From contig CALQYT010000002.1 of the NCBI GenBank assembly GCA_943348815.1, forward strand, positions 37,129 through 101,128: a stretch of 64,000 bases of DNA, given 5' to 3'. This DNA is from Candidatus Nomurabacteria bacterium. Lineage in GTDB: Bacteria; Patescibacteriota; Minisyncoccia; Phycocordibacterales; SBAW01. Positions 8,615-60,157 of this stretch are shown one piece after another. The notes under the pieces were generated by a model. It made no database searches. It saw only the letters and a program-made list of their open reading frames with translations, and had not been told where the DNA came from. Numbering within the stretch: the stretch's first letter is position 1; every line of letters starts with the position of its first letter. The position numbers and the translations under genes were made by a program.

Positions 8615-9859
8615 ATGTACGACCTCATAGTTATTGGCGGTGGTGCATCGGGGCTCATGGCGGCAGGGCGCGCGGCCGAGCTGGGAGCGCGCGTATTGGT
8701 GCTCGAAAAAAATAAACGCGTCGGCGAAAAGTTGCGTATATCGGGTGGCGGGCGGTGCAATATTACTAACGCCGAGCCCGACCCGCGGGTGCTGCTTCGT
8801 GCCTACGGCAAAGCCGAGCAATTTTTGTATTCGCTCTTTGCACAATTTGGCGTCAAAGATACGTTTACTTTTTTTGAGTCGCGCGGTTTGCCATTGGTGG
8901 TGCAAGCTAGGCAGCGCGCCTTCCCCAAAAGCGAAAAGGCTGCCGATGTGGTCAATACCTTGCTCGCGTACACGAAGAAGGGGAATGTAACTATCAAAAC
9001 CAGTGCGGCCGTAACACGGGTACATTCGGGCCCCAGCGGCATCGAGGGTGTGTCGGTGGGTGCCGAAACCTATCAGGCCAAAAACTATTTGTTTGCAACC
9101 GGCAGTGTCTCGCACCCGGAGACCGGTTCGAGTGGCGACGGCTTTGCCTGGCTGCGTACGCTTGGCCACACGGTGCGCAAGCCAACGCCAACGATAGTGC
9201 CGCTGTCGGTTAAAGAGGAGTGGGTCAAGCGGCTTGCGGGCGTGTCGATGGCGGGGATGAAAATAACTTTTTTTGTTGAGGGGGTAAAAGCGTTTGCCGA
9301 GAGCGGCAAAGTATTATTTACGCACTTTGGGGTTTCGGGCCCACTCATTTTAAATAGTGCACACAAAGTTGCCGATCTTTTGCACGATGGGGCCGTGACG
9401 GCAACTATCGATGCGTACCCCAAAGTTGATTTGGGTGCTCTTGAAAAAAAGATACTCGCTACGTTTGATGCCAATAAAAATAAAACACTGAAAAATGTGC
9501 TCAAAGAGTTTATCCCCGAGGGTACGACCGCCGGGATTGCCCATTTGGTCGGTGCCGAGATAGATATAAATAAAAAAGTACACTTGGTAAGCAAAGAGGA
9601 GCGTAAACGCCTGGCCTCTTTGCTCAAAGCGCTCCCACTTACGATTAATGGGCTTATGGGCTTTGACCGCGCGGTGGTTGCCGATGGTGGCGTGCCACTA
9701 AGCGAAGTGGACATGCGCACCATGCAGTCAAAAAAAATCCCCAACTTATATCTCACCGGTGACCTCCTCGACATAAACCGCCCCTCAGGCGGCTACTCAC
9801 TGCAGCTGTGCTGGTCATCGGGTTTTGTCGCAGGGACGCATAGTGCAAAGCAAAATTGA
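8615..9859 (+). CDS. HI0933/BaiN-family FAD-dependent flavoprotein
   Basis: Contains 'MYDLIVIGGGASGLMAAGRAAELG' (Rossmann fold) followed by 'RISGGGRCNITN'. Confidence 0.8.
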   Translation: MYDLIVIGGGASGLMAAGRAAELGARVLVLEKNKRVGEKLRISGGGRCNITNAEPDPRVLLRAYGKAEQFLYSLFAQFGVKDTFTFFESRGLPLVVQARQRAFPKSEKAADVVNTLLAYTKKGNVTIKTSAAVTRVHSGPSGIEGVSVGAETYQAKNYLFATGSVSHPETGSSGDGFAWLRTLGHTVRKPTPTIVPLSVKEEWVKRLAGVSMAGMKITFFVEGVKAFAESGKVLFTHFGVSGPLILNSAHKVADLLHDGAVTATIDAYPKVDLGALEKKILATFDANKNKTLKNVLKEFIPEGTTAGIAHLVGAEIDINKKVHLVSKEERKRLASLLKALPLTINGLMGFDRAVVADGGVPLSEVDMRTMQSKKIPNLYLTGDLLDINRPSGGYSLQLCWSSGFVAGTHSAKQN

Positions 9860-13337: not shown

Positions 13338-14982
13338 GGATAGTGTGGAGGCACGCGAGAAGGTAAGTCGGGATGCGAGCCTCTTTAAGGTGCTCCCCGA
13401 GGTGGTCGTGCGGCCTATTGACGCGCAAGATGTCTGCAAAGTAGTGCAGTTTGTCACCGAGCAAAAAACCAAAAGCCCAAAATCCACTATTTCGCTCACG
13501 GCACGCTCGGCGGGGACCGACATGTCGGGTGGGCCGCTTAACGACTCGATTATTTTGGATATGACGGCACACCTCAACAAGCTTGTTGAGATGGTGGAGT
13601 AAGACGCGGTGGTGGAACCGGGGATGTATTTTAGAGATTTTGATAAAGAAACGAAGAAAAAAAACTTAGAGTTGCCGAGCTACACCGCAAGCAGGGAGCT
13701 AAACACGGTGGGTGGGATGGCCGCCAACAACTCGGGTGGCGAAAAAAACTTAAAATACGGTAAGACTGCGCGCTACGTTGAGGGGCTTGAGGTGGTTTTG
13801 AGCGATGGGCAGGTACATACTTTGGTGTCACTTGAGGGCGAGGTGTTACAGAAAAAACTACAGGAGCAAAGTTTTGAGGGAGAGTTATACCGAAAAGTTG
13901 CCGCGCTGGTGGGGACTCCGGCACATGCCAAAGTGATCGAAAAAAATAAACCCCAAGTAGAAAAAAATTCTTCGGGCTATGCGGTATGGGATATTGGGGA
14001 TGGAAAAACTAAACTAAACCTCGCGCGGCTTATGGTGGGGGCGCAAGGCACACTCGGCATAATCACCAAAATACATTTTAAGTTGGTGCATCCCAAGCCC
14101 TACGCTTCGATGGCGGTGATTTTTGTTAAAAATCTTTCACAACTCGGCGAGCTGGTGCCTGAGGTGTTGAAGTATCAGCCCGACTCATTTGAGTCGTATG
14201 ACGACCACACCTTTAGTATTGCGATGAAGTACTTACCCGAGCTCGCAACGCAGATGAAGTCGGGGCTCTTGTCGCTCGGTATCTCATTTTTGCCGGAGTT
14301 ATGGATGGCCCTTACTGGTGGCATCCCTAAGCTCGTACTTATTGTCGAATTTAGGGGCGACACTCAGGCCGAGGCTCTGCAAAAGGCCCAAAAACTTGCG
14401 GGAGAGGTGGCTCATAATAAAGACCACGTGTCGGTCCGGGTGGCTAAAACCGAGGCACAGGCGCGCAAATATTGGGCCGTACGTCGTGAGAGCTTTAATT
14501 TGTTGCGCAAAAAGGTGCGGGGCAAGCGTACCGCGCCGTTTATCGACGATTTTGTGGTGCCGCCGCACACCCTGCCGGAGTTTTTGCCCAAATTGCAAAA
14601 AGTTATGGCAGAGTACCCCAGCCTCACCTACACGATTGCGGGCCATGTGGGGGACGGCAACTTTCACATTATCCCCTTGGTCGACCCCAACGATCCAACC
14701 ATCCGCACTACGATCGACGAGTTGAGCCACAAAGTGTATGACTTAGTGGTGCAATACCACGGCTCAATCAGTGGCGAGCATAACGATGGTCTTATCCGCA
14801 CGCCGTATGTCGAAAAGATGTTTGGCCCCGAAATGTACGGATTGTTTATGGAAGTAAAAAAGATCTTTGATCCGCAAAATATCTTTAATCCGGGTAAAAA
14901 AGTCGGTACGACTTTTAGCGATGCGCTCGCAAAGTTGGATTTACCGCCGCAACCTTCAGTCAAAACTCAGCAAGGCAAATGA
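13288..14982 (+). pseudogene. FAD-linked oxidase (GlcD/D-lactate dehydrogenase family) interrupted by an in-frame TAA at 13600-13602
   Basis: The two ORFs 13288-13602 and 13609-14982 are in the same frame. Read across the stop the sequence is '...LNKLVEMVE*DAVVEPGMYF...'. This is the conserved V-x-V-E-P-G-V stretch of the FAD-binding PCMH domain. The C-terminal part carries 'GGMAANNSGGEKNLKYG'. Confidence 0.6.
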
Positions 14983-25700: not shown

Positions 25701-26357
25701 TCATTTGAGCGAGGTCGAACCTCGCTCACTTCCGTAACCTATCCATCCTTGTATTTCTTTTTTGAACTCTTTGGGCGTAGGAAAATAATTCGGCAACACA
25801 GTTTTGTTTAATATTTTTCCTTGGGGACGCAATATGCCAGCAAGATCTGAGTAGCTTGAATATGGATAGTCGTCTAAAGTAACCCTTTCCTTTGGATTAA
25901 TTGGATTAAGGTGTATGTAAGCAATTAAATATTTTAAATATCGATCTTCTCCTGCATGTACAGATTTAAATTTTCCTTGAAACAATGCGCCAGTACGTTC
26001 GTTTTTGGTATTGAAATACATGGTGTATGCTGTTACAAGTTTTTGCATAAATCGACTGATACCGTTATCAACTTGTTGATGTAGTAAAAGATGGAAATGG
26101 TTAGGCATAAGACAGTAGCTAACAATAGCGACCAAAGGCTCGTTTCGGTCAACTTCGAGCGCACGAGTGAGTAAGGTCGAGCCTCGTTCAGAGCGGCGGA
26201 TATTTTCTATCTTTATAGATTCGGAACTGTTGGCTAAATACAAGAGGGAAAGAAAACGTTCGTAATCAGTTTTTGTAAGAAAAATTTTGCGTTTTTCGGT
26301 GCCGCGATTATAGATGTGGTAAAACTCGCCCTTACTTAGAGGAGGTCTATTTCCCAT
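25701..26357 (-). CDS. Y1 HUH transposase, IS200/IS605 TnpA / REP-associated tyrosine transposase (RAYT)-like
   Basis: Contains 'GEFYHIYNRG', the HUH motif 'YCLMPNHFHLLL', and a catalytic Tyr region 'IAYIHLNPINP'. Confidence 0.75.
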   Translation of the reverse strand: MGNRPPLSKGEFYHIYNRGTEKRKIFLTKTDYERFLSLLYLANSSESIKIENIRRSERGSTLLTRALEVDRNEPLVAIVSYCLMPNHFHLLLHQQVDNGISRFMQKLVTAYTMYFNTKNERTGALFQGKFKSVHAGEDRYLKYLIAYIHLNPINPKERVTLDDYPYSSYSDLAGILRPQGKILNKTVLPNYFPTPKEFKKEIQGWIGYGSERGSTSLK

Positions 26358-36148: not shown

Positions 36149-36829
36149 ATGAAAAAAATTCTGTTTGTTTGTTCGGCACTGTTTTTGTGCGCGCCTTTTT
36201 TGGCGAGTGCGCATCAGCATGGGACGTTTACCTTCGGCGGTTCAACCTACAGCTTTGTGGTGGGCTCGCTCAACGAGCCGGTCGCCGTTGATGACAAAAC
36301 CGGTGTCGACCTCACGGTTACCAAAGGTGCGGGGACGCCGACGATGTCAGCTGACGGTGACATGGATGGTATGCCAAAAAGTTCGACCCCGGTAACCGGT
36401 TTGGAGAAGACGCTGCAGGTTGAGCTTTCTGCCGGAGGAAAGACCAAAGTTCTCGCGCTCTCTCCCGCCTATGGCAAACCGGGTTCTTACACCGCGCCGT
36501 TTTATCCGACCGTTGCGACCTCTCTTTCGTACCGTTTTTTCGGCACGATTGATGGTACGAAAGTAAATATTACTTTTGTTTGCCGGCCAGAAGGTGCAAC
36601 CGCAATCGACGAAGGACAAAAAGATCTCGGCGGTGGCGTGATGCAAGTGTCCAAAATGGGTGGGTTTGGCTGCCCGATGGATAAAGCGTCGATGGGCTTC
36701 CCTGAACAGTCAGCGTCGGTCATCTCATTGAGTAGCGACAGCAATAGCGCGCGCACCTACTCATACGCAGGCATCGTGCTTGGCGCGGTCGCGTTGGTGT
36801 TTGGGTTGATGTGCCGCCGCAGCAACTAA
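36149..36829 (+). CDS. YcnI-like (DUF1775-type) exported copper-binding protein with a C-terminal TM anchor
   Basis: Signal peptide cleavage at 'ASA|HQHG' would expose an N-terminal His. Mono-topic C-terminal anchor 'YAGIVLGAVALVFGLMCRR'. Sits directly upstream of the CopC-CopD gene, as ycnI does with ycnJ. Confidence 0.4.
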   Translation: MKKILFVCSALFLCAPFLASAHQHGTFTFGGSTYSFVVGSLNEPVAVDDKTGVDLTVTKGAGTPTMSADGDMDGMPKSSTPVTGLEKTLQVELSAGGKTKVLALSPAYGKPGSYTAPFYPTVATSLSYRFFGTIDGTKVNITFVCRPEGATAIDEGQKDLGGGVMQVSKMGGFGCPMDKASMGFPEQSASVISLSSDSNSARTYSYAGIVLGAVALVFGLMCRRSN

Positions 36830-36834
36830 GCACG

Positions 36835-39582
36835 ATGCGGAAGATTGCAGCCATAGTGCTCGTGCTTGCCTGCGCGCCGCTCTTAGCGAGCGCGCACGCC
36901 ACACCCGTCTCATACGAGCCGGCGTCTTCTGCCGTGCTCACAAACCCTCCTAAAGAGGTTTCGATCCACTTTAGCGAAAGGGCAGATGCGGCAGCCAGTT
37001 CGTTGCAAGTACTTGCGCCGGATGGCGAGGTGGTGTCGCAGGGGAGTCCGCGCGTCGCACAGGGCGACGCGCGAGTGCTCTCTGTGTCTATCGTTGCAAC
37101 GACGAGCGGTACCTACGTGGTTAATTGGAGCGTCGTGTCGGCAGATGACGGGCACTTTACCAAAGGAGGTTACTTGTTTGCCGTTGGACAAGCGGTTGAT
37201 GCCTCTAAACAAACGTCCTCGTTTGAGTTAGTGACCACCAACAACATTCCCGAAGCACTCGGCATGACGGTCGAGTTAATGGGGCATGGGTTACTGTGGG
37301 CAATCCTATTATTTTTTGTATTCGCATTACGGCCGGTCTTAGGGCGTTTTATTGCTGAAAAACCCCTGTTGCGTCGATTGCATGCACGAGTGCTTTTTGG
37401 CGCCATCGCACTCGTCATACTGGGCGGACTGTTGCAGCTTTACACCAAGTCGTCTGATCTTTCGAGCTTGCATAGTGTTGGATTGCTCTCCGCCTTTTGG
37501 CTGTATCTCGGCACTTCGGCTGGGTTAGCCACACTCGTTCGTATGGGAGCCGCCACAATTATTGCGATCGTTTTTGCTTTTGCAAGAAAAAAGATTTTTG
37601 ATTCTGCGCATTTTACGCTGTGGGAGGGAATAATTTTTGGACTACTCTGTATTTTTGCTTTCGCGCGGGCAGTTATTAGCCACGCTACCGCAAACCCTTT
37701 TCATCCGTATTTTTCTATCCTCGTTAACTTTTTCCACGTAATAGAGAAGGACGTGTGGGCCGGTCTGCTATTTATTCTGCTCTTGCTACTGCTTATGCCG
37801 CGCCTGCGCGGGGTCTTTAGTGCGGTCGTGCAACGGGTGTTTGTGATGCTTTTGTGGGATGCAGCGGCTGTTGCGGTAACGGCAAGCTACATCGTATGGC
37901 TGCATCTAAAAAGTTTTAACAATCTCTTTTCGACCGAATGGGGGACCGCGTTTTTATACTTGCTTTGCGCCGCAGTGGTGTTGGTGCTGGTGCGGACTTG
38001 GAGCACGTGGGCACTTTGGCGCGGCCATGCCAAACAGCTCCCACTGGCGCTTGGTACAGAATTTATTTTTGCGGTGTTCGTAATCTACTTCTCGAGCATC
38101 GTTATTATTACCTCACCGCCGCTGTTAACGCCGCCAACTAAAGTTTTTAGCACCACGAGCCAAGGGATGACGATTAATCTTGGGCGCGACACTTCAGATG
38201 ATTCCGCGCTTTTGTTGCGCGCGGGCGGTGCGCCAACGGTTAGGATCGACTCACTCTCGGTCGACGCACACGCCCGTTATCCGGGTGCCTACGACATTCC
38301 TTTGGCCTTGCTTACCGGGACTACTACACACACAGTTTCGATCACCGTGCCACAGCAGAGGAGCTATGATGCGCACGCTGAGTTTGAAGTTACAAAAAGT
38401 GATTTTGTGCCACCGGCAGGATGGGAGTCGCAGCGACCGTTCGACTTTTTTACCATCGCGATAATCGTACTGGCTTTGTTGGCACTCTTATACTCCTTTG
38501 GTCTTTTGTGGATTTTGCGGCACACAAACGCACCTCCTATGTTGGTGGGCGCTACGACGCTTCAGGTCGCTGGCGCTGTGGTAGCGGCAAGTGTGGTTGG
38601 TATAGGATTTTTTGCCATCGTCATGAGTCTGGGCCTGGCAAATCCCTTTAAGGCGCTCTGCGAGAGCGACGGTAACAGGTGGCACACGATGCCGCCCAGC
38701 ATAGCGGGTGTCGCGACCAGTATGACCCCGCGCGAGGGCTGCATGTGGGGGATGGGTAGTTACACTTATCTTTTTGCCGATCAACAAGAATATAAATATT
38801 ATGAATCATTGCCACACGCAGAAGTTTCGCTCGCGGCGTCGCCAAAAATATTGGTTGCCGGAGTGCCCACCACGCTTACCGTATCGCTCACAAATGCAGA
38901 CGGGACTCCGGCGACGCTGTTTGTCGATATGGAAAAGTTGGTGCACTTGGTAATTGTCAGCAAAGACGAAACTACGTTTGCGCATATTCATGCCGCGCAA
39001 ACTGGCGACGAAATTGCGGCGTCGACTTATCACTTTACATACACCTTCCCCAAAGCGGGGGAATACTTAGTGTCAGCCGACTATGCACATGGACTGACAT
39101 TCGAATCAAAACAATTTGTAGTTATGGTCAGAGGTGCTCCGACACAAACAGTACAAGCAAAAGAGTATCCATCGCCCGGCGCTTTTGGCGGTTACCAAGT
39201 TGCGCTTAAATACGCGCTGCCGCTTGCCGGCAAAGTAGCAACGCTGCAATACACGATTACTAAAGATGACAAACCAATTACTACGATTGAGCCGTATCTT
39301 TCGGCTGCAGCGCATGTATCGATAGTAAAAAATGATTTCTCAACTTTTATTCATACGCACGGTGAGTTGCATCCGCCCGGCGTGCCGCTGCCGCCTATCG
39401 TCGTTAAAAACGGCCAAGTAGTGCACACGATGGCACAAATGATGAATGTGCCCGAGCATTTTGGCCCGCTGGTGGAAACGCATCTTATTTTCGGAACGGC
39501 GGGGCTGTATACGGTTTGGGCAGAGTTTAAAGTAAACGGTACGGTAATTCCTACCGCATTTACGGTGCGGGTGGAAGAGTAG
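36835..39582 (+). CDS. CopC-CopD fusion copper transport/resistance protein (YcnJ-like) with an extra TM segment and a duplicated C-terminal extracytoplasmic domain
   Basis: The N-terminus after 'ASA|HATPVSYEPAS...' has a CopC fold with 'WSVVSADDGHFTKGGYLFAV'. A polytopic CopD-like core follows. The C-terminal ~330 aa has two similar halves carrying 'FAHIHAAQTGDE' and 'FIHTHGELHPPG'. Confidence 0.7.
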   Translation: MRKIAAIVLVLACAPLLASAHATPVSYEPASSAVLTNPPKEVSIHFSERADAAASSLQVLAPDGEVVSQGSPRVAQGDARVLSVSIVATTSGTYVVNWSVVSADDGHFTKGGYLFAVGQAVDASKQTSSFELVTTNNIPEALGMTVELMGHGLLWAILLFFVFALRPVLGRFIAEKPLLRRLHARVLFGAIALVILGGLLQLYTKSSDLSSLHSVGLLSAFWLYLGTSAGLATLVRMGAATIIAIVFAFARKKIFDSAHFTLWEGIIFGLLCIFAFARAVISHATANPFHPYFSILVNFFHVIEKDVWAGLLFILLLLLLMPRLRGVFSAVVQRVFVMLLWDAAAVAVTASYIVWLHLKSFNNLFSTEWGTAFLYLLCAAVVLVLVRTWSTWALWRGHAKQLPLALGTEFIFAVFVIYFSSIVIITSPPLLTPPTKVFSTTSQGMTINLGRDTSDDSALLLRAGGAPTVRIDSLSVDAHARYPGAYDIPLALLTGTTTHTVSITVPQQRSYDAHAEFEVTKSDFVPPAGWESQRPFDFFTIAIIVLALLALLYSFGLLWILRHTNAPPMLVGATTLQVAGAVVAASVVGIGFFAIVMSLGLANPFKALCESDGNRWHTMPPSIAGVATSMTPREGCMWGMGSYTYLFADQQEYKYYESLPHAEVSLAASPKILVAGVPTTLTVSLTNADGTPATLFVDMEKLVHLVIVSKDETTFAHIHAAQTGDEIAASTYHFTYTFPKAGEYLVSADYAHGLTFESKQFVVMVRGAPTQTVQAKEYPSPGAFGGYQVALKYALPLAGKVATLQYTITKDDKPITTIEPYLSAAAHVSIVKNDFSTFIHTHGELHPPGVPLPPIVVKNGQVVHTMAQMMNVPEHFGPLVETHLIFGTAGLYTVWAEFKVNGTVIPTAFTVRVEE

Positions 39583-39695: not shown

Positions 39696-39769
39696 GCACC
39701 CTTAGCTCAGTTGGTTAGAGCGCACCCTTCACACGGGTGAGGTCGGGAGTTCGAGCCTCTCAGGGTGCA
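39696..39769 (+). tRNA. tRNA-Val (anticodon CAC), no encoded CCA
   Basis: Acceptor GCACCCT/AGGGTGC, D-arm TAGCTCAGTTGGTTAGAGC, anticodon loop TTCACAC, T-loop TTCGAGC. Confidence 0.85.
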
Positions 39770-39794
39770 CTGCTTCGCCAAGGCTTCGCAGTGC
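39770..39794 (+). repeat. 25-nt tRNA-trailer repeat, copy 1 (CTGCTTCGCCAAGGCTTCGCAGTGC)
   Basis: Begins immediately after the tRNA-Val discriminator. Together with the tRNA 3' end it forms GCACTGC...GCAGTGC. Confidence 0.6.
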
Positions 39795-39812
39795 GAGCAC
39801 AGGCAAGCGATT

Positions 39813-39883
39813 CGGGCTGTAGTATACCGGTAGTACGCGCGCTTCGGGTGCGTGAAGACTGGGTTCGATTCCCAGCAGCCCGA
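39813..39883 (+). tRNA. tRNA-Pro (anticodon CGG), no encoded CCA
   Basis: C1:G72 acceptor CGGGCTG/CAGCCCG, anticodon loop TTCGGGT, T-loop TTCGATT. Confidence 0.8.
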
Positions 39884-39909
39884 CAAAGTGATATAGTTTT
39901 TTGGCTTAA

Positions 39910-39980
39910 GGGCCCATAGTAAAGTGGTATTACGCGTCATTCGCATTGACGAGGCTCGAGTCCGATTCTCGATGGGTCCA
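39910..39980 (+). tRNA. tRNA-Ala (anticodon CGC), no encoded CCA
   Basis: Acceptor GGGCCCA/TGGGTCC with G3:U70. Anticodon loop TTCGCAT. Confidence 0.8.
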
Positions 39981-40005
39981 CTGCTTCGCCAAGGCTTCGC
40001 AGTGC
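39981..40005 (+). repeat. 25-nt tRNA-trailer repeat, copy 2
   Basis: Identical to copy 1. Begins right after the tRNA-Ala(CGC) discriminator. Confidence 0.6.
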
Positions 40006-40020
40006 AGGCACAAGAAGCCA

Positions 40021-40050
40021 GCAAAACTCCCCAAATGGGGAGTTTTGCTT
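40021..40050 (+). terminator. Rho-independent terminator
   Basis: AAAACTCCCC-AAAT-GGGGAGTTTT perfect hairpin followed by GCTTT. Confidence 0.6.
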
Positions 40051-40106
40051 TAAGTGGAGAAGCAGTGTCCTGCGTAGCTTTAGCGGAGCAGGGCTATAAT
40101 CGAATC

Positions 40107-40346
40107 ATGCACTATGTGTATATTCTCCAAAGTCAGGTGGATGGAAGTTTATATGTGGGTGTCACCGAGGATATAAAACGTCGTTTTGTCGAACACAATA
40201 ATGGTAATGCTAAATATTCAAGCTCGAAACGGCCTTATAAACTGAAATGGTTTTGTGCATTCCCAACGAAACAAAAGGCACTTATCTTCGAAAGATATCT
40301 AAAACACGGTTCCGGTTTTGCTTTTGCACGAAAACATTTAATTTAA
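40107..40346 (+). CDS. GIY-YIG nuclease family protein (YhbQ/UPF0213-like, 80 aa)
   Basis: 'MHYVYILQSQVDGSLYVGVTEDIKRRFVEHNNG'. The ORF-track call 39924-40346 runs through tRNA-Ala. The real start is the Met at 40107. Confidence 0.8.
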   Translation: MHYVYILQSQVDGSLYVGVTEDIKRRFVEHNNGNAKYSSSKRPYKLKWFCAFPTKQKALIFERYLKHGSGFAFARKHLI

Positions 40347-40616: not shown

Positions 40617-41162
40617 ATGGGGGGTTCAGAAACGATAAGCATTGCGGTGGCGCTGTTGGCGCTGTTTTTGGTGTTGAGTACGGCGCTCAAGTATGCCGTG
40701 CGCGATAACTTTCATCGCACGAGGCTTATCATGACGCTGTTTTTCTTTTTCATTATCATCACGCTCACGATGGCGTTTTGGCGCTACACGCTCGCCTCGT
40801 TGCCCTCTACCATCCCTGCGGCGCTTGCAGGCGTGGCGCTTGGCTATGTGGCGGGAGTGCGCGAGGCGCAACGCAAATTAATGGAGCAAGGAGTTGAGTT
40901 TTATCGCGAGCACTTCCATCACGTGCACTTTATGGATATCCAAAACCTCAGTTGGTGGAGCGTTATTAACTTTTACTCCGTGATGGGCGCATTAGTGTTG
41001 ATTAACCTGGTAGGATTGAGCACCGTATTTTTTGTTGGGCGCGAGTCGTGGGCTATTGCGAGCTGTGTGGTGGGCGCCCTCCTTTTAGGATCCTTGGTGC
41101 CGTATCTCGTGCACCTGTGGAGCCTGCCTGCCGGCAAGGCAGGTATTAAAGCAGCGGACTAG
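40617..41162 (+). CDS. Hypothetical polytopic membrane protein
   Basis: 181 aa with five predicted TM helices. Confidence 0.4.
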   Translation: MGGSETISIAVALLALFLVLSTALKYAVRDNFHRTRLIMTLFFFFIIITLTMAFWRYTLASLPSTIPAALAGVALGYVAGVREAQRKLMEQGVEFYREHFHHVHFMDIQNLSWWSVINFYSVMGALVLINLVGLSTVFFVGRESWAIASCVVGALLLGSLVPYLVHLWSLPAGKAGIKAAD

Positions 41163-41847
41163 CAATAAGCGCTGCACAAGCAAACAAAAGTACGATAAGC
41201 GAGCTGTGGAATATGCGGCGCGCGATCTGGCGTGTGTGGTTGCTTGGTGTTTGGTGGACAAATAACGGCACTCCGGCTGCTTGGTATTCTTCGTAGCGAT
41301 AATACGCAATTGCCATAAAGTGCGGTATCTGCCATAAAAATAGCGCCGCAAAAAGTATGAACGCATACCAATCGAGCAGGTTGGTTGCTGCAACATATCC
41401 GACGACCGGCGGCATGGCACCGGCGAGTGCTCCAACCCAAAGCGCGTGCGGGGTTTTTGGTTTAAGGGGGGTGTAAACGAAGACGTAAATCACAAATCCC
41501 AACAAACCAAATACCAAACTTAAAAGGTTAATCTTCCACAAAAGGACAATACCCAGAGTTAAAAATGCTGAAGCAAAGAGTATCGCGTGCCGTACACTGA
41601 TGCGCCCTGCAGCGATGGCGCGGTTGTTGGTGCGCGCCATTTTGGCATCCATGTAGCGATCGGAGACGTTATTGCAAACACAGGCGGCGGCGACTACGCA
41701 CGACAACCCGATCAACAGTTCCCAAAAAGGAATACTTGCGCTGAGCGTAGTCGAACCAAAAAAGAATCCCGCTACTGCCGCGAGCGCGTTGCCCGCCACC
41801 ATGCGGGGTTTGGCGAGTTCGAAATAATCACGGAGCGTCCTAGTCAA
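41146..41847 (-). CDS. cyoE: Protoheme IX farnesyltransferase (heme O synthase)
   Basis: UbiA-family topology and motifs ('NNVSDRYMDAKMARTNNR'). It is the last gene of the cyo operon. Confidence 0.85.
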   Translation of the reverse strand: MTRTLRDYFELAKPRMVAGNALAAVAGFFFGSTTLSASIPFWELLIGLSCVVAAACVCNNVSDRYMDAKMARTNNRAIAAGRISVRHAILFASAFLTLGIVLLWKINLLSLVFGLLGFVIYVFVYTPLKPKTPHALWVGALAGAMPPVVGYVAATNLLDWYAFILFAALFLWQIPHFMAIAYYRYEEYQAAGVPLFVHQTPSNHTRQIARRIFHSSLIVLLFACAALIASPLL

Positions 41848-42175
41848 GTTGGTGTTCGGGGGATGGCTCGCCTATAAACATTTCGGATTGATTGTGTTGG
41901 AGATTGCTCATGATCCATAGCGAGCCACCAACCACGAGCACGACTATCAAGATTGCAAAACCATAGACAAATTTGTTCCACCCATTGCCTTGAGGTAGGT
42001 GCAAGAAATACACGGTTTGTACCAACAGTTGAGCCACCGCAAACAGCGGTAATACAACATAGAGCAGCTCGTGAGGAATTGCCGTGTGATTCATATGCAC
42101 ATGCATCCCCACCAATCCAAAACTCAAAAGAGTAAATAAGAGCGAGAGGATCAGGCCGTCAAAATAGTGCTTCAT
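41840..42175 (-). CDS. cyoD: Cytochrome o quinol oxidase subunit IV
   Basis: Roughly 110-aa 3-TM protein directly after cyoC. The start is taken at 'MKHYFDGL', which overlaps the cyoC stop as ATGA. Confidence 0.55.
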   Translation of the reverse strand: MKHYFDGLILSLLFTLLSFGLVGMHVHMNHTAIPHELLYVVLPLFAVAQLLVQTVYFLHLPQGNGWNKFVYGFAILIVVLVVGGSLWIMSNLQHNQSEMFIGEPSPEHQLD

Positions 42176-42666
42176 ATAATTCCAAAGAGATACACAAAGG
42201 TGAAGATAAAGATCCAGATGATGTCGAGGAAGTGCCAAAAGAGCACGAGACGCTGCAGTTGATAAAACCGTTGGGTGACGAGCATCACCAGCATCCACAA
42301 ACATCCTGCGGCAACATGCAGGCCGTGCGTGCCGACGAGGGCAAAAAATGAGGAGAGGTAGGCCGAGTGAGAAGGTCCAAAACCCTCGAGCATTAAATTT
42401 TTAAATTCGTAGACTTCCAACCCAAGAAAGCCCAAGCCAAGCAGAAGGGTCAGTATTAGAAAAGTATTTTGTTTTTTAGTGACAAAAGCGAGCCCGACCG
42501 TAAAACTTGAGATAAGCAGGGCGAGGGTTTGGACAAAGACGAACGGTAACGAAAAAATATCTTCGCTGCCGCGCAACACCGCAAACGTAGCAAAGAGGCT
42601 CGCAAAGAGCACGCAATCGCTCATGATATAGAGCCAGAATCCCAGCGTTGTTTTGTCAGTCGGCAT
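42172..42666 (-). CDS. cyoC: Cytochrome o quinol oxidase subunit III
   Basis: Five TM helices, '[21 protein letters not shown]'. Heme-copper oxidase subunit III family. Confidence 0.8.
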
Positions 42667-44467
42667 ATTCTGGTTTAGGGAGAGTGATGAGGGACAACAA
42701 AATACCGATCAAAGCCAGCGCAGCGAGCCACCAAATGTGCCAGATGAGTCCAAAACCAAAGAGTGCGGCGACCGCGCCTATGGCGACGCCGCGTGCGCTG
42801 CGCTCATGCAATGGTTCGGCCGGTTCTTGCCACTCAGGGCCCTGCGAGCGCCACGGATTTTCGCCCACATGATGTTTATGTTTATTCCAAATGCTCACGA
42901 TTATTTGAATTATTTGGAATAGGACCGCGAGCGCTATTACGGCTGCACCAGCCGCTGCGATATCAAATAACCAATGTGCCCACGGTTGTGTGTACAAGCC
43001 ACTTGCAACGTCGATATGGTCGAGCCGGCGGGTGACGCCCATTAACCCAAGCGCGTAGAGCGGCATAAAGGCCATAAGGAAGCCCACGATCCATGCCCAA
43101 AACGCAGCTTTGCCCCAGCGCTCATTTAACATAATCCCCGTAAATTTGGGGAACCAGTAGGTAAACCCGGCAAAGAATCCAAACACCACGCCGCCGATAA
43201 TCATGTTGTGAAAGTGCGCGACCAAAAACAAACTGTTGTGAAGCTGAAAGTCGGCTGCGGGGATAGACATTAAGACGCCCGTCATTCCGCCAATGGTAAA
43301 CGTGGTGAGGAAGCCTATAAACCACAGCATCGGTGTGGCAAAAATAATCCGTCCGCGGAACATCGTGAAGAGCCAGTTAAATACTTTAACCCCGGTGGGG
43401 ATAGCGATAGCCATCGTCATGATGCCAAAAAAGGCGTTGACATCGGCACCGGCGCCCATGGTGAAGAAGTGGTGCACCCACACCATAAACGACAACACCA
43501 CAATGAGCATGGTGGCGACGACCATGGAGGTGTAGCCAAAAAGTTTTTTCTGCGAAAAGGTCGCGACCACTTCAGAAAATATGCCAAACGCGGGGAGTAC
43601 CAAAATATACACCTCTGGGTGGCCCCACGCCCAAATGAGGTTGACGTACATCATCGCGTTGCCGCCCAGATCGGTGGTAAAAAAGTGGAAGCCGAGCGTG
43701 CGGTCAAGTGCAAGCAGTGCCAACGTGACCGTGAGTATGGGGAAGGCAAAAATAACCAACAACATCGAGCCGAGGGTTGTCCACGTAAACATTGGCATTT
43801 GCATGAGCCGCAGGTGGCCACGCATGGTGGCAATGGTGGTAAGAAAGTTGATGCCCGAAAGTAAAGTACCAATACCCGCAATTTGGAGGGCCCAAATATA
43901 ATAGTCGACACCAACCCCCGGGGAGTAGGCAAGTTCGGAGAGCGGCGGGTAGGCAAGCCAGCCCGTTGCCGCAAATTGTCCGACGACGAGCGAAAGGTTT
44001 AAAAGCAACGCGCCGGTTGCGGTGAGCCAAAAGCTAATCGAGTTGAGGAGGGGGAAGGCGACGTCTTTGCTACCTAGTTGGAGCGGCAACACCAGGTTTA
44101 TGATGCCAAACATAAACGCCATTGCCGCAAAAAAGATCATAATGACACCGTGCGCGGTAAAGAGTTGGGCAAAATGGTCGGGTGAAATATAGCCTGGCGC
44201 GCCAACGGCAAGCGCTTGCTGCGATTTCATCATCAGTGCATCGACAAAGCCGCGGCCAAACATCACAAACGACAGCAGAATGTACATGATGCCAATGCGT
44301 TTTGGGTCAAGCGAGGTGAGCCACTGTTGCCAGAGCCATCGCCAACGACCTAAGTAGGTGATCGCGAGTACGGTGACGAGCACTGCGACAATAACGATGA
44401 TTTGCGCGCCCGTTTCGATAGGGCCGTGGATGAATGCTTGCGGAGTTAGGAGTCCAAAGAGCGACAT
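42656..44467 (-). CDS. cyoB: Cytochrome bo3-type quinol oxidase subunit I (heme-copper oxidase catalytic subunit)
   Basis: Contains '[23 protein letters not shown]' and '[16 protein letters not shown]'. The His ligands for heme and CuB are conserved. Confidence 0.9.
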
Positions 44468-44468
44468 G

Positions 44469-45230
44469 TTAGTGGCCGAATTGTTTCAGTATCGCATGGT
44501 AGAGGTCGATGCGATATGCATACGTGCGTTCTTGTTCGGTACTTGGTGCGCGTAGCGCGCTGTAAGTTGCCTGATCGAGCACGGGCGAGGTAGAGGCAGT
44601 TGCAGCTACCCACGCTTCAAAATCTTTTTGAGCGACCGCGTGCACCACAAAGTGCATACCGGCAAAACCCGCGCCGCTGTAGTTGGCCGAGTAGCCGGGA
44701 TAATCACCGGGTTTGTCGGCCATCAAGTTGAGCCTATTATCCATCCCGGTCATCGCATAAATTTGCCCGCCTAACTGTGGCACCCAAAACGAATTCATGG
44801 GCGCATCGGCGGTAATGTGGAACTCAACCGGTATGTTGGCCGGAATTTCTAGCGTGTTAAGGCTGGCAACCCCAAGAGAGGGGTATAAAAAGAGCCATTT
44901 CCACGGCAGTGCGACGACCTCGACTTGTAATGCGGGGACGGTCGAGGGGAGGGGTTTACGGGGATCGAGTGCATGCGTGCTGCCCCAGGTGAGTGCGCCG
45001 AGTACCAAAATAATTTCGAGCGGGATCGCCCACCAAATAAGCTCGTCCATCTTAGCGTGCTCCCAGTTAGGAGAGTAGCGAGCTTTGTGGTTACCAGCGC
45101 GATAGTAGTAGGCAAAGAAAAAAAGCAGCACAAACACCGGTACCACGACAATAAGCATAAGAAGCGTCGCTTGGATAATAAGCGACGCTTCTTGGCTCGC
45201 GATGATGCCGCTGCTCTGCAGCAAGTACAT
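44469..45230 (-). CDS. cyoA: Quinol oxidase subunit II (CyoA-type, CuA site absent)
   Basis: '[52 protein letters not shown]' aligns to E. coli CyoA. The CuA Cys/His ligands are missing. Confidence 0.85.
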
Positions 45231-45237
45231 CGCTACA

Positions 45238-45897
45238 TTATATGCCGACTTTTATACCGGTCTCGTGATCGGTCTTAATTCCGCCCTCGCCACCCTTAAC
45301 ACTCGTGCCGGTTTGCACCTGTACGTTTGCGTTGGTGTCTGCGTTGTTGTTAGTAGTTTCGGTTGTTGAAGCTTCAGGATGAGTTGCCGCATCAGCAGTA
45401 GCTTTAGCCGAAAGTTGTGAAGCAACGTCGAGGGTTGCCCGCACGTTGTTGATGACGACACCGAGCGCTGCTTGCGCGTTCGTGTTGGCGTGAGCGCTTG
45501 CTTGGGCAAGCACCTGAATGCGCGAGGCTACTGAGGCTTGAAATTTGGCCGCAACATCGGCGGCGGCTTGGTAGTCGCCATCGGCCTGCAAGTTGGCGAT
45601 GCGCTCAGCAACGCCGCGTGCGTGGGCGTCAAAGTTGCCCTGCAAGTCGGCCTCAAGGTTGGCATCGAGCTTGTTTTCTGCGGCAAGTTTTTGTGCCTCG
45701 TCGAGGCGTGCTTCGGCAAGGGCGATGTCCCAGTTAGCCTTGGCTTCGTCGCCCACGGCGATAGACTCGGCTACGCGTTCGTTAACCTGAGTTTTAAATC
45801 CCCACAAAGCGTCGCCCGGGAGCGCGTTTTGCGCCGCGACGGAAGTACCGCCGCCAATGGCTGCGGCAAGAATGAGTGCTAGTGCAATAAAAGGCAT
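45238..45897 (-). CDS. Hypothetical Ala-rich exported coiled-coil protein heading the cyo operon
   Basis: Signal peptide 'MPFIALALILAAAIGGGTSVAAQ'. The rest is Ala/Gln/Asn-rich low-complexity sequence. Confidence 0.4.
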   Translation of the reverse strand: MPFIALALILAAAIGGGTSVAAQNALPGDALWGFKTQVNERVAESIAVGDEAKANWDIALAEARLDEAQKLAAENKLDANLEADLQGNFDAHARGVAERIANLQADGDYQAAADVAAKFQASVASRIQVLAQASAHANTNAQAALGVVINNVRATLDVASQLSAKATADAATHPEASTTETTNNNADTNANVQVQTGTSVKGGEGGIKTDHETGIKVGI

Positions 45898-46020: not shown

Positions 46021-46987
<967 letters not shown>

Positions 46988-46993
46988 ACGTTT

Positions 46994-47434
46994 GTGCAGG
47001 CAATTCTTACCACATTCGGGATAGATTGGCGGCTCTTGCTCGTCAACATCATTAACTTCGGGCTCTTGCTCGCGGCGTTGTGGTACTTTTTGTACGGTCC
47101 GGTTACCAAAATGTTAGAGGAGCGTCGGCAGCGAGTCGCACAAGGGGTTGCCGACGCTGAAGCGGCTGCGCAAAAACTTGCCGAGGTAGAAGTAAAGCGC
47201 CGCGAGGTGCTAGGTGCCGCCGGCAAAGAGGCCGACGAAATACTATTGGGTGCGCGCTCTGCGGGTTCTGCAAAAGAACGCGAGTTGGTCAAGAAGGGAG
47301 AGTCGTCTGCGGCAGCGGTATTACGCGAGGCAGAGGCTCAAGCCGCCGAACTAAAGACCCGCGCTATCGACGAAAGTCGCCAGGAGGTCGCCAAACTGAT
47401 TGTCTTGGGGATAGAAAAGGCTTTAAAACAATGA
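46994..47434 (+). CDS. atpF: F0F1 ATP synthase subunit b
   Basis: N-terminal TM helix plus a long charged helix. Confidence 0.8.
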   Translation: MQAILTTFGIDWRLLLVNIINFGLLLAALWYFLYGPVTKMLEERRQRVAQGVADAEAAAQKLAEVEVKRREVLGAAGKEADEILLGARSAGSAKERELVKKGESSAAAVLREAEAQAAELKTRAIDESRQEVAKLIVLGIEKALKQ

Positions 47435-47667
47435 TAGAAGCTGATTACGCAAAAGCGCTATATGCACTCGGGGATAAGGCATCTATGCCGGCTTTTCTTG
47501 TCACACTTAAGCGTCATCGGCACCAAAAGCTCTTATCAAAAATTTTTTCTGAATATCAAAAACTTATTTTGCAAGGACAACGATTGGCGATGCACAAAAA
47601 AGTAACTCCTGAACAAGAACAAACACGGGTGCTGTTGGAGTTGTATAGAAAACTAACCCATGTCTAA
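47431..47667 (+). CDS. atpH: F0F1 ATP synthase subunit delta, severely shortened (78 aa)
   Basis: In the delta position between atpF and atpA. 'DYAKALYAL' resembles the OSCP N-terminus. Confidence 0.45.
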   Translation: MIEADYAKALYALGDKASMPAFLVTLKRHRHQKLLSKIFSEYQKLILQGQRLAMHKKVTPEQEQTRVLLELYRKLTHV

Positions 47668-49216
47668 TTTTATCGAACAATTTAAAAAAGAAATTGAAGG
47701 CTTTATCCCGACCGAGCGGCCTAAAAATGGCGGCGTAGTGCTGCGCGTGGGTGACGGTGTTGCCGAGATAGAGGGGCTCGAGGGCGCAGCCATGTCGGAG
47801 ATGGTCAAGTTTGAGGTGTCGCACGGCAAACAACTGAAAGATGCAATCCAAACCCGCGATGTGTTTGGCGTGGTACTTAACCTCGAAGAGACCTCGGTAC
47901 GCGTGATTATTTTAGGCGACAGTTCCACGGTAACAGAGGGGATGGGTGTTACCCCGATGGGTCAGGTACTCTCTATCCCGGTCGGTGATGAGTTGCTTGG
48001 TCGTGTGGTGAGCGCACTTGGCGAGCCGCTTGATGGTTTGGGCGCGATTAAATCGACAAAAAAGAATGCAATCGAACGCGAGGCCTATGGTGTGATGGAC
48101 CGCGAGTCGGTAAAGCAGCCTCTGCACACGGGTATTAAAGCGATCGACTCGATGATCCCCATAGGTCGCGGCCAGCGTGAGTTGATTATCGGCGACCGCT
48201 ATACCGGCAAAACGACCGTTGCTATCGACACCATCCTCAACCAAAAAAGCGAGCCGAAAGAAAGCCGCCCTGTTTGTATTTATGTTTCGGTGGGGCAAAA
48301 AGAAAGTAAAACCGCACGTCTGGTGCAACAACTTAAAGAAGCGGGCGCGATGGAGTACACGATTGTGGTTGATGCCGGTGCTTCGGCTCCGGCGGCGCTG
48401 CAATACCTAGCACCATTTGCGGGTGCCGCTATTGGGGAATTCTTTTTGGACAGCGGTCGCGATGCGCTCGTAATTTATGACGACCTTTCTAAACACGCGG
48501 TAGCGTATCGCCAACTCTCGCTCTTGCTGCGCCGCCCCCCGGGCCGCGAGGCATACCCGGGCGACGTGTTTTATCTCCACTCGCGCTTGCTTGAACGTGC
48601 GGCAAAGCTCAATAAAGAAAAAGGGGGTGGATCACTGACGGCTTTGCCGATTATCGAAACGCAGGAAGGCGACGTCTCGGGTTACATCCCAACGAACGTC
48701 ATCTCTATTACGGACGGACAGATCTTTTTGGAGACTGATTTGTTTAACAAAGGTATGCGCCCGGCAATCAACGCCGGTATCTCAGTGTCACGCGTCGGTT
48801 CATCGGCACAAACCAAAGCGATGAAGAAAGTCTCGGGCCGTATCAAACTCGAGTTGGCGCAATTCCGCGAGTTGGAGGCCTTTATGCAGTTTGCACAAGA
48901 CCTTGATGCGGACACTAAAAAGCGCATCGACTCCGGCCAGCGCATGATGGCAATCTTGCGCCAAAAAAACGGCAACCCGTTGTCGTTTGAGAATCAGGCA
49001 ATCGTCATTTATGCCGCGGTTAATGGCTACTTGGCCAAGGTGCCGGTAGCGCGCGTGCCGGAGTATGAAGAAAAGATGCTGCAATTTATTGAGGCAGAGG
49101 CTAAATCTATCCCTGAGTCTATTGCACGCTCTAAAGAGATTGCCACACAGACCGAAGAGGAGTTGAAGGTGATGCTCAAAAAATTTGAAGAGACACATCC
49201 AGATTTATTTCAATAA
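47660..49216 (+). CDS. atpA: F0F1 ATP synthase subunit alpha
   Basis: P-loop 'GDRYTGKTT'. 518 aa. Confidence 0.95.
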   Translation: MSNFIEQFKKEIEGFIPTERPKNGGVVLRVGDGVAEIEGLEGAAMSEMVKFEVSHGKQLKDAIQTRDVFGVVLNLEETSVRVIILGDSSTVTEGMGVTPMGQVLSIPVGDELLGRVVSALGEPLDGLGAIKSTKKNAIEREAYGVMDRESVKQPLHTGIKAIDSMIPIGRGQRELIIGDRYTGKTTVAIDTILNQKSEPKESRPVCIYVSVGQKESKTARLVQQLKEAGAMEYTIVVDAGASAPAALQYLAPFAGAAIGEFFLDSGRDALVIYDDLSKHAVAYRQLSLLLRRPPGREAYPGDVFYLHSRLLERAAKLNKEKGGGSLTALPIIETQEGDVSGYIPTNVISITDGQIFLETDLFNKGMRPAINAGISVSRVGSSAQTKAMKKVSGRIKLELAQFRELEAFMQFAQDLDADTKKRIDSGQRMMAILRQKNGNPLSFENQAIVIYAAVNGYLAKVPVARVPEYEEKMLQFIEAEAKSIPESIARSKEIATQTEEELKVMLKKFEETHPDLFQ

Positions 49217-49219
49217 TCT

Positions 49220-50137
49220 ATGGCACTTAAACAAATAAAATCTAAGATCCTGGCAATGAAAAAGTCGCAAACCGTCACCAAAGCGATGGAGGCGGTCTCG
49301 GCTGCCAAAATGCGCAAAAGCCAACTCAAAGCTCTGAACGGCCGCGCGTACGCTAAAGCGGCCGTTTCTGTCCTCTCCCGAGTATCCGGGAGCCGGCTTT
49401 TTTCGAGTTTGCCGCTCACGACGGAGCGTAGTGTTACTGCCGCACTCTACATTGTGATCACGAGCGACAAAGGTCTCGCCGGGGCACTCAACTCAGGGGT
49501 GTTGCGGACGGCGGTGGCCGACATACAAGCCTCGGGACTTAAGAAAGATGTCGTTTCGATTATTGCGGTAGGCAAGAAAGCAAGTGACTTTTTTGAGCGG
49601 CGCGGTTTTCATGTCGTACATCACGCCAACACCGACCACATTTCCTCCGAGTTTATCGACACGGTGGTCCGGCAGGCGATACAACGCTTTTTGCTCGGGG
49701 CGGTTGACCTCGTGAAGATCGCATACCCCAACTTAATTTCAACGTTTGAACAGCGCCCAACCATGAGGACGATATTGCCGCTTACGCTCGGCGAATTACA
49801 AAAAGTAGTTAGTGATATTGTTCCGGCTCGTGGTGTAGCAACCTCTGCGTTGGTTGAATCCACAAAAAAAGTAGTACAGTCCTATAGTCTTGAGCCTTCA
49901 GAAGAGGAGATATTAGAAATGATATTGCCCAAACTCGTTTCTATTTTTGTATATCACGCACTGCTCGAGTCGCAAGCATCCGAGCACTCGGCGCGTATGG
50001 TGGCGATGAAGTCGGCCTCGGACAAAGCAGGGGAGATGCAAGAAAGTTTGACGCTGAAGTTTAATAAAGTGCGGCAAGCAGCTATTACGCGCGAGGTGAG
50101 CGAAATTACCGGCGGTATGGAAGCAATGGCGAGCTAA
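49220..50137 (+). CDS. atpG: F0F1 ATP synthase subunit gamma
   Basis: 'MALKQIKSKILAMKKSQTVTKAMEAVSAAKMRK' and the C-terminal helix 'ITREVSEITGG'. Confidence 0.9.
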   Translation: MALKQIKSKILAMKKSQTVTKAMEAVSAAKMRKSQLKALNGRAYAKAAVSVLSRVSGSRLFSSLPLTTERSVTAALYIVITSDKGLAGALNSGVLRTAVADIQASGLKKDVVSIIAVGKKASDFFERRGFHVVHHANTDHISSEFIDTVVRQAIQRFLLGAVDLVKIAYPNLISTFEQRPTMRTILPLTLGELQKVVSDIVPARGVATSALVESTKKVVQSYSLEPSEEEILEMILPKLVSIFVYHALLESQASEHSARMVAMKSASDKAGEMQESLTLKFNKVRQAAITREVSEITGGMEAMAS

Positions 50138-50141
50138 CTAA

Positions 50142-51530
<1,389 letters not shown>

Positions 51531-51626
51531 CAAGTATCAAACAAATATAAAAGTATAAAAACTTAAATATTTAAAATTTGTTACTTATTTGTCACTTGAT
51601 ACCTGATACTTGATACTTACAAAATT
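51531..51626. repeat. AT-rich spacer with short direct repeats (AACAAGT x3, GATAC(C)T x3) arranged as an imperfect inverted repeat
   Basis: Seen between atpD and atpC: '...gtaacaagtaacaaataacaagtatcaaacaaat...atttgttacttatttgtcacttgatacctgatacttgatactt'. Confidence 0.4.
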
Positions 51627-51863
51627 ATGCATTTAGTAATCGCCAAAGTAGATGAAGTTTTATTTGAGGGCGAGGCACACTCGCTGACGGTCCCCGGCAC
51701 AGCTGGCGAGATGACCGTGCTCGGCGAGCATATGCCGCTTATTACGACGCTCAAAGCGGGCGAGTTGCGCGTGCATCTAACCGTGCATGATGAACCAAAA
51801 ATATTTCCGGTCGAAAAGGGTGTCCTCGAAGTCCGCCGCGACGGGGCTACGGTGATTTTGTAA
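51627..51863 (+). CDS. atpC: F0F1 ATP synthase subunit epsilon, beta-sandwich domain only (78 aa)
   Basis: 'MHLVIAKVDEVLFEGEAHSLTVPGTAGEMTVLGEHMPLIT'. The C-terminal helical hairpin is absent. Confidence 0.75.
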   Translation: MHLVIAKVDEVLFEGEAHSLTVPGTAGEMTVLGEHMPLITTLKAGELRVHLTVHDEPKIFPVEKGVLEVRRDGATVIL

Positions 51864-59542: not shown

Positions 59543-60157
59543 ATGGGATTTTTTACCGACCACGGAAGGCGCAAGATTGTACTTTTGTTGGGACACCCCA
59601 ATAGCGATCCGACACTCTCGAGCGAGTTAGCGCTTATTTACGAAGCGGCGGCCAAAAAAGCCGGGCACGAGGTTAAGCGGTTTAACTTAACCGATATAAA
59701 GTTTGACCCGATTTTGCACAAAGGATACAAAGCGATCCAAGAGCTCGAGCCCGATATAAAAAATTTGCAGGAGGCAATAAGGTGGTGCGATCATTTTGTA
59801 CTTATTTATCCAAACTGGTGGCAAACCATGCCCGCGCTCTTAAAAGGATTAATCGACCGCCTATGGTTGCCGGGATTTGCGTTTAATATGCGCAAAGATA
59901 AAAACGGCAAGCAAACAATTGGCTGGTACAAACGGCTCAAAGGCAAAACGGCGCGCGTGTTTGTGCTCTCGGGCTCGCACCCGCTGCTTATCTGGCTCTT
60001 TTTTGGCGATTACACTAACGAAATTAAGATGGGGATTTTGTGGTTTGCCGGATTTAAGACAAAAGTTTCGCGCTTTGGCCCGACCGACCAAGCGCCCGAA
60101 TGGAAGAAAAACGAATGGCGCAAAAAAGTGGCACGGCTTGCGACGTTAGGGGAGTAA
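59543..60157 (+). CDS. Flavodoxin-like NAD(P)H-dependent (quinone) oxidoreductase
   Basis: 'KIVLLLGHPNSDPTLSSELA' and 'HFVLIYPNWWQTMPALLKGLIDR' match the Flavodoxin_2/MdaB-like pattern. Confidence 0.65.
   Translation: MGFFTDHGRRKIVLLLGHPNSDPTLSSELALIYEAAAKKAGHEVKRFNLTDIKFDPILHKGYKAIQELEPDIKNLQEAIRWCDHFVLIYPNWWQTMPALLKGLIDRLWLPGFAFNMRKDKNGKQTIGWYKRLKGKTARVFVLSGSHPLLIWLFFGDYTNEIKMGILWFAGFKTKVSRFGPTDQAPEWKKNEWRKKVARLATLGE

Follow-up and report, generated by a model that had tools for sequence, protein, structure and literature searches.

The 64,000-nucleotide stretch analysed here (the window), from contig CALQYT010000002.1 of a Candidatus Nomurabacteria bacterium assembly, carries a complete cyoABCDE gene set for a cytochrome bo3-type quinol oxidase, arranged in the same order as in Escherichia coli. 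Judged from its sequence, the locus is an intact A-type haem-copper quinol:O2 oxidoreductase of the cytochrome bo3 type, which is predicted to pump protons. The reading that we favour, at a probability of roughly 60%, is that of a functional, streamlined bo3 quinol oxidase with its own haem O synthase in a small Kaiserbacteria-like genome of the candidate phyla radiation (CPR), which would use scavenged quinone reduced by an NQO1-type enzyme and would pump protons. Gene positions given below are those of the open reading frames (ORFs) of the window, and families were assigned by Pfam and/or NCBIfam scans over 59 window ORFs. Six minus-strand ORFs, tightly packed or overlapping, match exactly the span 41146-45897, for which the initial annotation had claimed a complete cyoABCDE operon:

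45238..45897, minus strand: DUF5667 protein, 219 aa (PF18915, 27.9 bits against a cut-off of 27).
44469..45230, minus strand: cyoA, subunit II, 253 aa (TIGR01433, 283.2 bits, above the cut-off of 266.2).
42656..44467, minus strand: cyoB, subunit I, 603 aa (PF00115, E = 9.8e-140; TIGR02843, 872 bits).
42172..42666, minus strand: cyoC, subunit III, 164 aa (TIGR02842, 183 bits).
41840..42175, minus strand: cyoD, subunit IV, 111 aa (PF03626; TIGR02847, 74.7 bits).
41146..41847, minus strand: cyoE, haem O synthase, 233 aa, TTG start (TIGR01473, 215.6 bits, above the cut-off of 210.3).

The exact ORF coordinates and the agreeing family assignments both bear out that claim. For every subunit, the Cyo model scores far above those for Qox and for cytochrome c oxidase, and CyoA, alone of the four oxidase subunits, also exceeds its NCBIfam equivalog cut-off (283 against 266 bits). 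All reading frames of the operon are open and no frameshift was found in it; scans of this region for promoters and terminators gave counts that match chance expectation.

The catalytic core of the enzyme is fully retained. The CuA region of CyoA, aligned to the E. coli SASYSGPGFSGMKF, is without Cys, His or Met ligands, and the CoxB model scores far below TIGR01433 for this subunit; the initial annotation had called the enzyme a quinol oxidase rather than a cytochrome c oxidase for the lack of these ligands, and the alignment with E. coli CyoA agrees. CyoA has neither a signal peptide nor a lipobox, its alignment beginning at E. coli residue 29. The identity of CyoB to its E. coli counterpart is 62% over 542 aligned positions, and all 25 of the functional residues checked (E. 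coli numbering, mapped through the alignment) are conserved. The high-affinity quinol site is kept (R71, D75, H98 and Q101), as are the haem b ligands H106 and H421, the haem o3 ligand H419, and the CuB ligands H284, H333 and H334 together with the cross-linked tyrosine Y288. Next, an alignment of CyoB for the Glu-286-type proton channel, which the initial annotation had suggested as a check, finds E286 and both channels intact, with D135, N124, N142 and E286 of the D channel and K362 and T359 of the K channel in place. Finally, R481 and R482 are conserved too. What CyoB has given up is confined to the loop at ~548-580 (E. coli numbering) and the C-terminal tail, the last two helices being kept, and the protein is about 50 aa shorter than the usual form. 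CyoC likewise has three short loop deletions, which are specific to this genome, its relatives being 183-187 aa long.

The overall design thus follows that of the E. coli CyoABCD and CyoE proteins (1FFT, 6WTI, 7CUB, 8F68), with the same gene order, a CuA-less subunit II, and the same ligands, channels and quinol site. In contrast to E. coli, CyoA here is without the lipoprotein signal peptide, CyoB without the ~548-580 loop and most of the C-terminal tail, CyoC has 164 aa instead of 204, CyoE has 233 aa and is without TM7-TM8 (the seventh and eighth transmembrane (TM) helices), and quinone and haem synthesis are not visible among the window ORFs scanned. The aa3-600 menaquinol oxidase QoxABCD of Bacillus subtilis (6KOB) likewise belongs to the A-type quinol oxidases that lack CuA, and subunit I matches it at E = 5e-174, but the Qox models score lower here (QoxB 647 against CyoB 872 bits, QoxA 161 against CyoA 283 bits), and whereas aa3-600 uses haem A, no haem A synthase was seen here.

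The haem O synthase is co-encoded, as the initial annotation had stated, although it is without the TM7-TM8 hairpin. The public gene call for cyoE gives a protein of 218 aa that starts at 41802, which is probably 15 codons too late; the start at 41847 is preferred because the TTG at this position restores the conserved N-terminus. On a canonical CyoE hidden Markov model (HMM) built from 62 canonical sequences, residues 6-201 correspond to positions 2-198 and residues 202-228 to positions 251-277, and canonical positions 199-250, the ~52 residues of the hairpin, are missing internally. Instead of the nine helices that are canonical for haem O synthases, CyoE accordingly has seven. A C-terminal truncation, as read from the TIGR01473 coordinates, was replaced by the internal TM7-TM8 deletion after the tails had been mapped on the canonical HMM, where the C-terminal 38 residues of each of the 111 short CyoE homologues map to the final helix, TM9. 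A frameshifted or split cyoE was also considered and rejected, as none of the three minus-strand frames beyond the stop of cyoE shows a continuation.

The short form is evidently widespread within the lineage. Among the best 120 matches to CyoE, at least 111 are short homologues of 225-246 aa, and short CyoE proteins form over 100 sequence clusters, with ~50% identity between clusters and invariant active-site motifs. The first Asp-rich motif, N59xxxD63xxxD67, shows no variation at N59, N60, D63 and D67 in 39 short homologues, and the WQxPHF...Y(R)xxEY region is invariant or nearly so. CyoE is ~233 aa long in the window and in the related loci L001 and L082-L084, against the canonical 285-288 aa in Saccharibacteria and Chlamydiota cyo loci. 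An AlphaFold2 (AF2) model has seven helices and is very confident, with a predicted local distance difference test score (pLDDT) of 97.2 and a predicted template modelling score (pTM) of 0.92. The modelled fold resembles the nine-TM UbiA prenyltransferases AfUbiA (4TQ3) and ApUbiA (4OD5), at TMq 0.68-0.72 with the 0.72 falling on 4TQ3, but with seven helices. By these measures the short CyoE is a lineage-wide structural variant of the haem O synthase family and not a pseudogene. A combined text search found no paper joining haem O synthase, transmembrane architecture and Patescibacteria, and the seven-helix form appears to be undescribed so far; if active, it would define a minimal catalytic core of the UbiA fold. 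A separate variation is seen in a Paceibacterota locus (GFS_2860, L010:3383 onward), where the CyoE frame of 595 aa consists of a canonical-length haem O synthase followed by a ~300-aa C-terminal soluble domain.

At the end of the operon, cyoE and a convergent gene share 17 nucleotides at their 3′ ends:

40617..41162, plus strand: TM181, a 181-aa membrane protein with five TM helices and no Pfam or NCBIfam family.

TM181 belongs to a family of 132 members, and all taxon names given by the sources are Paceibacterota or Parcubacteria. It is found convergent at the operon 3′ end in 7/7 Paceibacteria loci, namely the window, L001, L082, L083, L084, L085 and P0216. In the Saccharibacteria and Chlamydiota cyo loci examined, TM181 was not found; these loci have a CyoE of ~285-288 aa and a CyoB of ~655 aa, whereas the Kaiserbacteria-like clade combines the seven-TM CyoE with TM181. 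The motifs Y96xxH99FxH102, WWSxINFYS and PYLxH166LW are invariant or near-invariant in the family. An AF2 model (pLDDT 81.6) consists of five TM helices and an amphipathic helix, and the charge distribution together with the helix pattern of the model suggests that the His residues of Y96xxH99FxH102 and H166 would lie on the cytoplasmic face. Structure and profile searches gave nothing specific for TM181, no sequence in the PDB matched it even at E = 10, and the weak sub-threshold matches of 13 of 35 family members to Pfam 7TM-7TMR_HD led to no assignment. It was also considered whether TM181 might supply the missing CyoE helices in trans, which is not supported: hhalign against canonical CyoE gives a probability of 0.6% (P about 0.1), and TM181 is present in P0216 without an adjacent cyoE. 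TM181 is a candidate for a new oxidase accessory factor. A further-reaching proposal, which we consider improbable, would be that Paceibacteria which respire or scavenge O2 make their bo3 oxidase with a minimal, undescribed seven-helix haem O synthase and also have a dedicated, lineage-restricted TM181 that handles scavenged haem or aids oxidase assembly; if that were true, TM181 would represent a new kind of factor for assembly or haem handling that is peculiar to symbionts auxotrophic for haem.

As to the supply of electrons and cofactors, none of the 59 window ORFs scanned is a men, ubi or mqn gene, none encodes NDH-1, NDH-2, SDH or bc1, and none is a haem-synthesis gene. The initial annotation had likewise seen no quinone-biosynthesis or NADH dehydrogenase gene in the window; that part stands, but it had missed a reductase of the NQO1 type:

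59543..60157, plus strand: candidate NAD(P)H:quinone oxidoreductase of the NQO1/NQO2/Smu.1420 family, 204 aa, flavodoxin-like fold (PF02525, E = 4.5e-28).

The best solved relatives of this protein are all quinone reductases (3LCM/4F8Y, NQO2 and NQO1). It has the PF02525 fold in common with NQO1, NQO2 and the Streptococcus mutans NADPH:quinone oxidoreductase Smu.1420 (3LCM/4F8Y), at a moderate similarity of E = 1.8e-15. In L083, the ATP synthase operon is closely followed by the gene of an orthologue with 72% identity, and L084 has another at the same place; in the window, ~7.7 kb separate the reductase gene from atpC, and surface-protein genes lie in that stretch. Since an NQO1-type gene is nearby and conserved in the neighbourhood, a candidate quinol-generating enzyme is thus visible. 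Two further flavoproteins are encoded elsewhere in the window. One, at 13609..14982 on the plus strand, is a GlcD/YdiJ-like FAD-linked oxidase, the N-terminus of which matches only positions 68-138 of FAD_binding_4, so that a wrongly set start or a truncated gene is possible; the other, at 8615..9859, is of the aminoacetone-oxidase family.

The operon also has a close genetic connection with an ATP synthase, the two clusters diverging from a 123-nucleotide intergenic region:

46021..51863, plus strand: F1Fo ATP synthase operon, from ORFs and Pfam labels (atpB, atpE, atpF, a short atpH-like gene, atpA, atpG, atpD and a short atpC).

The adjacency of the cyo and ATP synthase genes is kept in L082, L083, L084, L085 and the P0216 locus. 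The cluster of ATP synthase, cyoABCDE and convergent TM181 is preserved in five related loci from independent assemblies, and P0216, as a sixth locus, has cyoABCD with convergent TM181 and the ATP synthase ~3 kb off. Two of the ATP synthase subunits are short, in the relatives as well as here: the delta-like subunit (47431-47667, plus strand) has only 78 aa and no Pfam match, and the epsilon subunit (51627-51863, plus strand), also of 78 aa, consists of the N-terminal domain only.

The surrounding genes place the contig within the CPR. The closest CyoB sequences, 65-74% identical, are named as Kaiserbacteria, Adlerbacteria, Parcubacteria or Paceibacterota, followed by those of Saccharibacteria and Chlamydiota at 53-60%, and the nearest homologues of CyoE and TM181 likewise come from Paceibacterota, Parcubacteria, Kaiserbacteria or Adlerbacteria by name. 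The order uvrA-uvrC-ddl-pterin dehydratase, then cyoABCDE, then ATP synthase is common to three related contigs, a 534-kb and a 489-kb contig from JGI and the Ca. Kaiserbacteria metagenome-assembled genome (MAG) GCA_009691465.1, to which AtpA is 77-85%, AtpD 85-92% and UvrA 83-85% identical; for the syntenic MAG itself, the values are 85%, 91% and 85%, respectively. Across the related loci the identities are 67-74% for CyoB, 69-85% for AtpA and 83-85% for UvrA. The window contains no rRNA gene, and no ribosomal protein was detected in the scanned ORFs. Taken from these gene comparisons, the contig is a bona fide CPR sequence of Kaiserbacteria-like Paceibacteria, and the operon is a long-standing resident of this Paceibacteria lineage. 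The initial annotation had spoken of a CPR-like, reduced genome in a CPR/Saccharibacteria framing; housekeeping identity, synteny and the CyoB homologues uphold the CPR, but the lineage is Paceibacteria and not Saccharibacteria. Nor does the contig belong to a typical aerobic phylum, the housekeeping identity and gene order matching the Kaiserbacteria MAG.

The presence of a cyo operon in the CPR is itself not new. Such operons have been described from soil and groundwater CPR in Saccharibacteria (e.g. Ca. Teamsevenus rhizospherense), Doudnabacteria and Parcubacteria (Nicolas et al. 2021, PMC8407418; PMC7507113, PMC9938205, PMC12577380). The published operons have the E. coli gene order, occur in genomes without quinone synthesis and are often accompanied by an associated oxidoreductase and an F-type ATPase; the operon and the kind of reduced genome are thus the same as here, and the protein encoded at 59543..60157 may correspond to that associated oxidoreductase. 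Groundwater Patescibacteria and single-cell genomes also carry cyo genes, and for the single-cell genomes a horizontal acquisition from Proteobacteria has been inferred. Both respiration and detoxification have been put forward in the literature as the purpose of the CPR oxidases. Modestly novel elements of the present locus are the seven-helix CyoE, TM181 and the conserved NQO1-type reductase.

In the favoured reading of a functional, proton-pumping oxidase, the quinone would not be made by the cell and would instead be taken from the host or the surroundings. Its reduction would fall to the soluble NQO1-type NAD(P)H:quinone reductase encoded nearby, perhaps with a contribution from other flavoproteins, and the resulting quinol would be re-oxidised by the oxidase, which would reduce O2 to water and pump protons. 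The outcome would be the regeneration of NAD(P)+, the removal of O2 and a proton-motive force usable by the divergent F1Fo ATP synthase next door. Haem B would probably be scavenged as well and converted to haem O by the seven-helix CyoE, and TM181 may act as an accessory or assembly factor. The physiological role that we infer would be energy conservation or O2 scavenging. The locus represents one well-resolved Paceibacteria example of a CPR terminal oxidase without the rest of the respiratory chain, the value of which lies in the conserved catalytic and proton-pumping machinery, the genetic coupling to the ATP synthase and the nearby candidate NAD(P)H:quinone reductase; these three details make a minimal chain from NAD(P)H through scavenged quinone to O2 a concrete and testable hypothesis.

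Several points weigh against this reading. CyoB, CyoC and CyoD all score below their equivalog cut-offs (872 against 1020, 183 against 224 and 75 against 81 bits, respectively), a shortfall that fits the loop and tail deletions. The candidate reductase matches NF007280 ‘NAD(P)H oxidoreductase’ with 62 bits, below the cut-off, and enzymes of the NQO1 type are often detoxifying rather than respiratory. The gene scan covered only the 64-kb window out of a metagenomic contig of 137,928 bp (ENA ERZ27280317, k141_121202), and the presumed absence of quinone and haem synthesis from the genome rests on published accounts of related genomes. The haem O synthase activity of the seven-TM CyoE is a prediction, and in the P0216 locus (JGI 3300056388) cyoABCD is followed directly by convergent TM181 with no cyoE between, so that the CyoE of that genome is either lost or encoded elsewhere.

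Of the other explanations, it is possible, though on balance unlikely, that the oxidase only scavenges O2 and in this way protects a fermentative, oxygen-sensitive symbiont, with no meaningful energy conservation. This is the prevailing published reading for the CPR, argued from the absence of other respiratory complexes, and the initial annotation was indeed in line with the published view when it brought up O2 detoxification with possibly host-derived quinol. The lack of NDH-1, NDH-2, SDH and bc1 genes in the window would agree with such a role, and a gene for methionine sulfoxide reductase, found in another part of the window, fits an oxidative-stress theme. However, the D channel, the K channel and Glu-286 are fully conserved, which argues that proton pumping is built into the turnover of the enzyme, the linkage to the ATP synthase is tight and conserved across the clade, and a low-cost scavenger would not need four strictly conserved structural subunits. 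Scavenging and energy conservation, moreover, are not mutually exclusive.

The reductions seen in the operon could also be taken as signs of decay, with the enzyme no longer assembled or active. The missing quinone synthesis, a CyoE without two helices, a CyoC with three deletions found only in this genome, a CyoB short of ~50 aa and the three subunits below their equivalog cut-offs would all be compatible with a decaying remnant, yet this appears very improbable, as the deletions are confined to loops and tails, and the short CyoE, for which the model is very confident, recurs in more than 100 clusters with invariant active-site motifs. Together with the open frames, free of frameshifts, and the retention of every catalytic residue checked, this points to purifying selection rather than decay. 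The chance that the oxidase genes are not from the CPR at all, and that the contig is chimeric or stems from an ordinary aerobe, seems close to negligible. The 62% identity of CyoB to the E. coli protein might suggest it, and a past horizontal acquisition of the operon from Proteobacteria is probable, but the neighbourhood of uvrABC, ddl, ATP synthase and cyo recurs in independent JGI, NCBI and ENA assemblies, and the DUF5667 and DUF5671 families that flank the region are typical of the CPR. Base composition is also uniform across the operon and its flanks: the GC content is 0.523 in the operon and 0.508 in the window, and that at third codon positions (GC3) in the operon is within the range of the housekeeping genes. 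The recurrence of the cluster in relatives and the matching composition argue against a recent transfer or a chimeric contig.

The DUF5667 protein encoded upstream of cyoA is rich in alanine (22.8%), with a hydrophobic signal or anchor segment at its N-terminus. Its stop lies 7 nucleotides upstream of the cyoA start, and because only these 7 nucleotides separate the two genes, they are likely co-transcribed in this genome. L001, L082 and L083 also have a homologue upstream of cyoA, whereas that of L084 is located elsewhere. The description of an Ala-rich secreted protein heading the operon in the initial annotation therefore holds for the composition, the hydrophobic N-terminus and the position upstream of cyoA, but not for a constant membership in the operon, and the protein is, by its distribution among the related loci, a loosely linked neighbour rather than a defining member. 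A different addition is present in another Paceibacteria cyo operon, where a 345-aa ORF without a Pfam family (L085:4115-5152) is located between cyoA and cyoB.

On the other side of the operon, at a distance of 1.6 kb, a 923-aa membrane protein is encoded (36811-39582, plus strand), which has an N-terminal CopC domain, many TM helices and a weak C-terminal match to a Filamin-repeat (Ig-like) domain. It could supply copper in this genome, but it was rejected as a conserved copper supplier, being absent from the flanks of related cyo loci. The stretch that separates the quinone reductase gene from the ATP synthase operon encodes two proteins that look like surface or adhesion proteins (54074-58599, plus strand), one a beta-helix protein and the other a YDG/MBG-repeat protein of 991 aa that has a peptidoglycan-binding domain; these genes have no counterpart at that position in L083 or L084. 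A tRNA cluster for Val(CAC), Pro(CGG) and Ala(CGC) occupies 39696-39981 on the plus strand and is followed by the ORF of a small GIY-YIG nuclease (39924-40346, plus strand), the true start of which is probably near residue 62, because the longest frame overlaps the tRNA-Ala. Finally, an IS200-like Y1 transposase gene (25701-26357, minus strand) is located between tgt and uvrB.

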